Shown here: one piece after another, positions 4,866-5,676 of the stretch
Numbering within the stretch: position 1 is the first letter of the stretch
Layout: every line of letters starts with the position of its first letter
Source of the DNA: Escherichia coli
GTDB taxonomy: Bacteria; Pseudomonadota; Gammaproteobacteria; Enterobacterales; Enterobacteriaceae
Reading direction: 5' to 3' (one strand)
Assembly: GCF_041248615.1 (NCBI RefSeq)
Contig: NZ_CP158426.1
Length of the DNA stretch: 64,000 nucleotides
Notes under the pieces: generated by a model
Databases searched by the model: none
The model's input: the letters and a program-made list of their open reading frames with translations, nothing else
Told to the model about the DNA's origin: nothing
Translations under genes and position numbers: made by a program

Positions 4866-5188
4866 ACTTTCAGGCCCCTCTCATGTAACCAGTGGGCTGC
4901 ACGCAGCCTGCCGTTTTCCTCACCGGCAAGCAGTGCGCGGATAATCCCGACCGCCTCGCTGTCGTCGTCCTTCACCGCGGTATGAAGCGTTATCCCCCGG
5001 GCCACGCCACGCTTTATCGTGATGACGCCTTTTTTCTCCAGTGCACGAAGATGCTCTACCGCTGCATTCACTGAACGGTATCCCAGCATGGTTGCCACCT
5101 CCTGATTGGTTGGCGGAAAGCCACGCTCTTTCTGGTAAGAAATCAGCATATCCAGCACCTGCTGCTGGCATTGAGTTAACGTCGTCAT
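4862..5188 (-). CDS. LexA N-terminal DNA-binding-domain paralog lacking the S24 autoprotease domain (108 aa from ATG 5188)
   Basis: LTQCQQQVLDMLISYQKERGFPPTNQEVATMLGYRSVNAAVEHLRALEKKGVITIKRGVARGITL aligns at roughly half identity to the recalled E. coli LexA N-terminus; protein ends before any Ser/Lys peptidase region; start TAATG-coupled to upstream gene. Confidence 0.7.
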   Translation of the reverse strand: MTTLTQCQQQVLDMLISYQKERGFPPTNQEVATMLGYRSVNAAVEHLRALEKKGVITIKRGVARGITLHTAVKDDDSEAVGIIRALLAGEENGRLRAAHWLHERGLKV

Positions 5189-5676
5189 TACGCCCCCACG
5201 TAATTCCCTGACAGATACCACTCATCACTCGATACAGCGCGCTTGCTGCTTTTCCGTAAACACTGCTCACGACGCGCCAGAAAATTGTTTCGTTCTGGCT
5301 GGGAGTGGCTTTCACGGAATGCCGCCATCCACACCGTTGCAGCACGACGGTATAAGCCCCTTGACTCCAGTTCTTCAGCCTGGCGGGTCAGGCACAAAAT
5401 CACCCGGGGATCGTTAGTGCCGACATAGAAATTGCGCACAGGTCTGGTTTCACGAACTGGTTGTGGTTCCGGCTCCTGCGCTCTCTCAGTCAGGCGCGGG
5501 AAATGTCTGCGTGTATCTCCTTCACAACGGTGAGCCACACGCCCACTCTGACGTAACTTGCTTGCTGACTGCAGAACGCGCTGCCGTGAGTAACCTGCAA
5601 AAGCATCCGCAATGTCTCCGGAAGTACACCCCGGATGGGCTTCAATGAATTTCTGAACTTCATTCAAAAGACTCAT
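5188..5676 (-). CDS. putative regulator with PerC-like C-terminal motif (162 aa from ATG 5676)
   Basis: EELESRGLYRRAATVWMAAF resembles the PerC/Pch signature; AGGGGG SD; start 2 nt after the replication-gene stop. Confidence 0.4.
   Translation of the reverse strand: MSLLNEVQKFIEAHPGCTSGDIADAFAGYSRQRVLQSASKLRQSGRVAHRCEGDTRRHFPRLTERAQEPEPQPVRETRPVRNFYVGTNDPRVILCLTRQAEELESRGLYRRAATVWMAAFRESHSQPERNNFLARREQCLRKSSKRAVSSDEWYLSGNYVGA

Follow-up and report, generated by a model that had tools for sequence, protein, structure and literature searches.

The PerC and Pch proteins of pathogenic Escherichia coli are encoded on mobile elements, PerC on the pMAR2 plasmid of enteropathogenic E. coli (EPEC) and PchA, PchB, and PchC on prophages of enterohemorrhagic E. 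coli (EHEC). They are single-domain proteins of 89-104 residues. PerC and PchA-C activate ler; PchD has no effect on it, and PchE an effect of <2-fold (PMC5931665). Additionally, PchE represses curli and affects flagella (PMC6265319, PMC7369912), and EcCIMP1_025, a PerC-family protein encoded on a phage-inducible chromosomal island (PICI), represses LEE1 in the enterocyte effacement locus (LEE) (PMC11773190). The authors of the latter study also saw a resemblance between the PerC family and the ANR family, the members of which act by binding AraC-family regulators and H-NS (PMC4983702, PMC5570504). Described here is yfdN, a PerC-family gene in a 64,000-nucleotide stretch of E. coli DNA (contig NZ_CP158426.1), hereafter referred to as the window. 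The encoded protein has two domains, namely a winged helix and, connected to it via a disordered linker, a three-helix module that shares homology with the core at the N-terminus of PerC/Pch and, more remotely, with the ANR proteins.

The open reading frame lies on the minus strand at positions 5188..5676, with an ATG at 5676 and a TAA at 5188-5190, and encodes 162 residues. The strand was set in the present analysis, the first-pass annotation of the window having given none. The DNA is 100% identical to that of E. coli NRZ14408 (NZ_LT599825), in which this coding sequence is annotated as yfdN, "PerC family transcriptional regulator", and the identity to annotated yfdN genes ranges from 96 to 100%. 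It is a delayed-early gene of a lambdoid prophage. A full-length family match, covering residues 1-161, is to PHROG 1324, "transcriptional activator" (E = 9e-78), and the protein displays all three features of that subgroup, which corresponds to yfdN of RefSeq: the N-terminal domain, the PerC core, and a W.L.G.Y.G tail. The start codon assigned by the PGAP pipeline for RefSeq is a GTG at 5682, two codons upstream of the ATG, which yields a protein of 164 residues. The RefSeq start is probably too far upstream by two codons, and the ATG at 5676 the better choice: family members have a conserved MSL N-terminus, and the Shine-Dalgarno sequence AGGGGG (5682..5687, minus strand) is spaced for this ATG. 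As read from the sequence, the Shine-Dalgarno element is contained in the final codons of the gene upstream (…AGGGGGTGATTATG).

The first-pass annotation had proposed a PerC-like regulator on the basis of the motif GLYRRAATVWMAAF, which, read directly from the sequence, comprises residues 107-120 (positions 5317..5358). Its resemblance to PerC/Pch is real and, judged by the profile E-values, far beyond chance. The Pfam PerC profile (PF06069) matches YfdN with a score of 39.3 bits and an E-value of 7.7e-10, well above the gathering score of 22.6. The alignment to PchA and PerC that had been suggested as a check was positive by both BLASTP and hhalign. With reference sequences taken from pMAR2 and the Sakai genome, BLASTP (E-values between 1e-5 and 2e-10) gave identities of 32% with EPEC PerC, 40% with PchA, 33% with PchD, and 40% with PchE. 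PchE is the best pairwise match (E = 2e-10). In hhalign, the family profile aligned with EPEC PerC and PchA at probabilities of 97.3% and 97.4%, respectively. Eleven residues are invariant in YfdN, PerC, PchA, PchD, and PchE, namely A100, L103, E104, G107, R110, R111, A112, W116, R129, R136, and C139, and the conserved residues of the PerC core (A, LE, G, RRA, W, R, and R..C) are all present in YfdN. Given that the profile search and the alignments are positive and that the RefSeq name agrees, the label of PerC-like regulator is correct. The notion that the motif arose by chance in a noncoding or miscalled reading frame has virtually no probability left and is considered refuted. It is at odds with profile E-values of 1e-9 to 1e-78, with conservation at the protein level, both domains being retained down to 25% identity, with a confident AlphaFold2 fold, and with a conserved ribosome-binding site and gene coupling, and no point in its favor was found.

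Relatives of YfdN were gathered by an exhaustive HMMER search, which gave 104 cluster representatives. The full-length relatives contain 140-165 residues, are 25-47% identical, and retain both halves of the protein in the family alignment (A2). An AlphaFold2 model built on the family alignment has a mean predicted local distance difference test score (pLDDT) of 83.5. Residues 1-60 (positions 5497..5676, minus strand) form a winged helix with the order helix-helix-helix-β hairpin, modeled with a pLDDT of ∼90 and absent from PerC/Pch. Following this is a Pro/Glu-rich linker of variable length, residues 61-89 (5410..5496), which is predicted to be disordered (pLDDT of 51-55) and is gap-rich and unconserved in the alignment. 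The three-helix PerC core, residues 90-143 (5248..5409), contains the GLYRRAATVWMAAF motif and is modeled with a pLDDT of 95-98. It is the sole part of YfdN that is homologous to PerC/Pch, and within it L103, R111, A112, and C139 are invariant across the family alignment. The C-terminal tail, residues 144-162 (5191..5247), carries the subgroup-specific W.L.G.Y.G motif and has a low pLDDT. In the alignment G161 is nearly invariant and the L/G/Y pattern is conserved, with no counterpart in PerC/Pch. No independent structural match for the three-helix domain was found in the fold searches, which were dominated by the winged-helix domain.

The relationship to PerC and PchA/B/C is thus confined to one module. 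Residues ∼94-150 of YfdN correspond to residues 1-55 of PerC/Pch, with 32-40% identity over ∼50 residues and the common pattern A..LE..G.YRRAA..W…ER…RR..C. The Pfam match likewise extends only from residues 98 to 152, or profile positions 5-59 of 90, whereas PerC and PchA-E span the core and the C-terminal half of the profile. That C-terminal half (…MG…FRNY) is missing in YfdN, its place being taken by the W.L.G.Y.G tail. YfdN additionally differs in its genomic context and in its ∼95 extra N-terminal residues, which provide the winged helix and linker, and so it falls outside the small single-domain size range (∼90-104 residues) of the PerC/PchABC functional group. Because it lacks the C-terminal half of PerC/Pch and has a winged helix at its N-terminus, YfdN is, by sequence, best classed as a subgroup of its own rather than as a PerC/Pch orthologue. 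PchD, PchE, and the PICI proteins EcCIEDL933, EcCICFT073, and EcCIMP1_025 have a YfdN-like core, but they are single-domain proteins of ∼90 residues without a winged helix. Like yfdN, their genes occupy replication-proximal sites on phage-like elements. Indeed, PerC-family genes recur beside the replication or DNA-modification modules of mobile elements. In the Sakai genome, pchE (L003:11772-12044) follows primase and single-stranded DNA-binding protein genes and immediately precedes the capsid genes in Sp7, a small element, and pchD (L005:34877-35146) is found directly after ibrA/ybdM.

A more remote relationship connects the PerC core to the ANR proteins, such as Aar of enteroaggregative E. 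coli. The ANR model NF033650 (54 positions) scored 24.6 bits against the C-terminal domain of YfdN, 18.2 against PerC, 17.9 against PchE, 16.2 against PchD, and 13.6 against PchA; full-length YfdN scored 22.5 bits. All five proteins match in the same register and all lie below the 32-bit cutoff, which is indicative, at the level of sequence, of remote homology and not of membership. The published ANR consensus, A10/E14/A22/W26/A29 (PMC4983702), has exactly the spacing of A100/E104/A112/W116/A119 in YfdN. ANR proteins, unlike YfdN, are stand-alone and linked to AraC-family genes, and YfdN has the PerC-specific signatures YRRAA and Cys139. Since ANR proteins bind AraC-family regulators and H-NS, the shared three-helix unit may, by analogy, be regarded as a protein-interaction or effector module, to which the winged helix of YfdN would be a DNA-targeting addition.

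The ANR relationship also allows for a reading in which YfdN is itself an ANR-like anti-activator, the helical module sequestering an AraC-family regulator and/or H-NS with net repression as the outcome and the winged helix serving only as a scaffold or for dimerization. YfdN has the best ANR score of the five PerC-family proteins, and it conserves the positions essential for ANR function (PMC4983702). Moreover, ANR-like action was suggested by the authors who showed that a PICI-encoded family member represses LEE1 (PMC11773190). That score is nevertheless under the curated cutoff, and ANR proteins are ∼60 residues long and encoded beside AraC-family genes, a context not seen at the yfdN locus. 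We regard this reading as rather unlikely.

The winged helix of YfdN has only the bare fold in common with those of the MarR, ArsR, and MecI types, the sequence identities being ∼10-20%. The only MarR-family matches were weak and partial (phrog_1687, E = 8e-5; BilQ, 17-18 bits with a cutoff of 125). The model shows a winged-helix core without the flanking dimerization helices of MarR, and the protein also lacks the metal site of ArsR.

The first-pass annotation had also raised the prospect that the prophage encodes a cross-activator of virulence loci. In its strongest form YfdN would be a functional equivalent of PerC/PchABC, a prophage-made direct activator of LEE1/ler and of other virulence loci. 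Speaking for such a role is the conservation of the PerC core with its YRRAA..W and RR..C motifs. Indeed Uhlich et al., who referred to yfdN as "the K12 unique PerC homologue", thought the gene risky enough to delete it, as a precaution, from a K-12 ler::lacZ reporter strain (PMC5931665). Opposing this role is the absence of the entire C-terminal half of PerC/Pch together with the presence of an extra domain, and also the behavior of other family members: PchD and PchE barely affect ler even though their architecture is nearer to that of PerC (PMC5931665), and the PICI protein represses LEE1 (PMC11773190). Finally, yfdN is present in K-12 and in about half of E. coli genomes. Most yfdN-carrying E. 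coli genomes have no LEE. Direct activation of virulence genes by YfdN is therefore judged to be very unlikely. Because family members activate, repress, or leave the LEE unaffected, family membership is no predictor of virulence activation, least of all for a protein without half of PerC, and the implied virulence link is not supported for the YfdN subgroup. No direct functional data for YfdN, including an LEE test, were found in the literature searched. Over-expression of yfdN has been associated with a glycogen phenotype (PMC2853380), the gene is mentioned indirectly in connection with filamentation caused by a five-gene UTI89 fragment (PMC6206680), nitric oxide induces it together with further prophage genes (PMC5320621), and in a predicted interactome it falls into the "negative regulation of transcription" cluster (bioRxiv 10.1101/2025.05.07.652715). 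None of these mentions is direct, and they do not discriminate among the explanations considered here.

The distribution of the gene was surveyed by megablast against 5426 complete E. coli genomes, 2667 of which contain yfdN, mostly at 95-99% identity. A tblastn search found it in 56 phage records, including mEp460, SfV, SfII, SfIV, Stx2c phages, and, at 67% identity, ST64B. In K-12 it resides in the cryptic prophage CPS-53 (KpLE1). The K-12 protein (UniProt P76510, the accession given in the ST64B record) is an orthologue without substantial differences, with 96% DNA identity over the full length and the same size and two-domain layout. There, the gene is likewise preceded by an O-like gene, the truncated yfdO, and is followed by yfdM, which is dam-like, whereas the downstream gene in the window is LexA-like; this variation between a LexA-like gene and a methyltransferase is seen in other genomes as well. 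Thus yfdN is a ubiquitous and already annotated prophage gene, and the identification, although correct, was already known.

With respect to its surroundings, yfdN is located as the first-pass annotation had it, in the replication/nin region of the prophage, between an O-like initiator gene and genes for LexA-like, RusA, KilA-N, and Q proteins. The complete order on the minus strand is cII-like (YmfL), DUF4222, O-like initiator, yfdN, a gene encoding only a LexA DNA-binding domain, RusA, KilA-N, DUF968/HNH, and Q. The order of initiator, yfdN, dam and/or LexA-like gene, and RusA is also observed in mEp460, ST64B, and a metagenomic relative of 32% identity. The initiator (5679..6620, minus strand) was assigned from profile matches and is HTH_36/DnaD_N-like. 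At its junction with yfdN, the minus strand reads AGGGGG-TGA-TT-ATG, such that the stop codon lies 2 nucleotides from the yfdN ATG. On the other side, the ATG of the LexA-like gene (4862..5188, minus strand; 108 residues, without an S24 peptidase domain) overlaps the yfdN stop codon in the sequence TAATG. This LexA-like gene is conserved in SfV, mEp460, mEp390, and cdtI. Related loci were retrieved from IMG/VR with a 10-sequence subset of a 37-sequence alignment, and 84 of them included upstream sequence. In all 84, an open reading frame on the same strand ends within -4 to +2 nucleotides of the yfdN-like ATG, and in 75 the stop codon and ATG are separated by 2 nucleotides exactly as in the window. 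Translation of yfdN is tightly coupled to that of the upstream replication initiator, within the early-right block of the O-like, yfdN, LexA-like, and RusA genes. A promoter scan of positions 4400-8000 revealed no σ70-like promoter, and therefore there is no sign of independent yfdN expression in the lysogen.

The proteins encoded upstream of yfdN are of several body types (272, 286-299, 307, 313, 321, and 327-330 residues), some only ∼20% identical to one another, and all share the C-terminal tail …DP.FK..Y..VDYS.IP.GFRG. In the window, the last 25 codons of the O-like gene (5682-5756, minus strand) encode the tail REDPYFKASYDNVDYSQIPAGFRG, which is 42-100% identical among initiators with ∼20%-identical bodies. 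The tail might serve as a docking peptide for the host replisome. Also within the O-like gene, at positions 6248-6311, is a tandem array of a 15-base pair unit repeated 4.3 times with the consensus CAGATTTTGACGGGT, which encodes a SKSD(P/A)SKSD peptide repeat and looks like the origin iterons found within the initiator gene in λ-type phages.

The arrangement resembles that of the λ O C-terminus plus P, and for this reason the idea was examined that YfdN is a second replication protein analogous to λ P, binding the initiator tail and recruiting or loading the host DnaB helicase. The gene does occupy the λ P slot, directly after the initiator in every one of the 84 loci, and no P-like or DnaC-like gene is annotated in mEp460, ST64B, or the present prophage. 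Furthermore, the tail is shared by initiators with unrelated bodies and travels with yfdN, being found in 57 phage records that are nearly the same set as those carrying yfdN. In the isolated phage mEp390, however, yfdN is missing and the LexA-like gene comes directly after an initiator that bears the tail, and in phage cdtI yfdN has been deleted, leaving its first 26 codons (L090:3579-3660) between the replication gene and a dam/PAPS-reductase-like gene. In Stx2a_WGPS2, yfdN is split by an insertion sequence. YfdN shows no similarity to any loader family in Pfam, PHROG, or NCBIfam, and so has neither the family likeness nor the indispensability of a λ P/DnaC-type loader. In an AlphaFold2 model of a fusion of the tail, a Gly/Ser linker, and YfdN, the tail was undocked (pLDDT of 34-52), a weak negative given the shallow alignment (17 paired sequences) and the monomer model. 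In light of mEp390, cdtI, and the disrupted Stx2a phage gene, a loader role was rejected as the main explanation and is considered highly doubtful. Because yfdN is absent from mEp390 and deleted in cdtI, it is, from these sequences, most readily viewed as an accessory member of the early operon, dispensable and not required for phage replication. In cdtI, a sequenced phage carries a naturally occurring deletion of yfdN.

Insertion sequences are present in the early-left region of the prophage, namely IS1 (11045-11742) and the IS256-like IS1414 (14485-15693), with coordinates converted from those annotated in record L001, which is identical. As a result of these insertions, the prophage may be defective.

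On the basis of the domain architecture and the gene order, YfdN is proposed to be a winged-helix-targeted transcription modulator of the PerC/ANR type that is produced along with the replication proteins once the prophage is induced. In this scheme, the protein would be expressed from the early rightward promoter following prophage induction or infection, and its basic winged helix would place it on DNA. The PerC/ANR-type helical module would then alter transcription through contacts with nucleoid or regulator proteins, by analogy to Pch, which relieves silencing by H-NS/StpA/Hha, and to ANR, which binds AraC-family regulators and H-NS. Whereas the identity and architecture of YfdN are nearly certain, confidence in the mechanism is moderate, and the proposal as a whole is given a slightly better than even chance of being correct. 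A broader and distinctly speculative extension, which we consider improbable at present, is that YfdN-type proteins constitute a distinct and widespread class of phage early regulators in which a PerC/ANR-type interaction module comes fused to a winged-helix domain of its own that targets DNA. Being translated together with the initiator, such a protein would allow a prophage, once induced, to reshape H-NS- or AraC-dependent transcription locally, or else the chromatin near the prophage origin. On this view, the effector element throughout the PerC/Pch/ANR superfamily would be the PerC core, a point that would help to explain the action of the canonical PerC/Pch proteins.

For the window itself, the finding matters little, in that yfdN is a very common annotated gene and provides no evidence of a virulence regulator in the strain or the prophage. 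It does call for caution with the "PerC family" label, which rests on a 50-residue core found in proteins that activate, repress, or ignore the LEE. For the family, YfdN demonstrates that the PerC core can be joined to a separate winged-helix domain, and, as the mechanism of PerC/Pch is still poorly understood, a K-12 protein with this architecture would offer an easy experimental handle on it.
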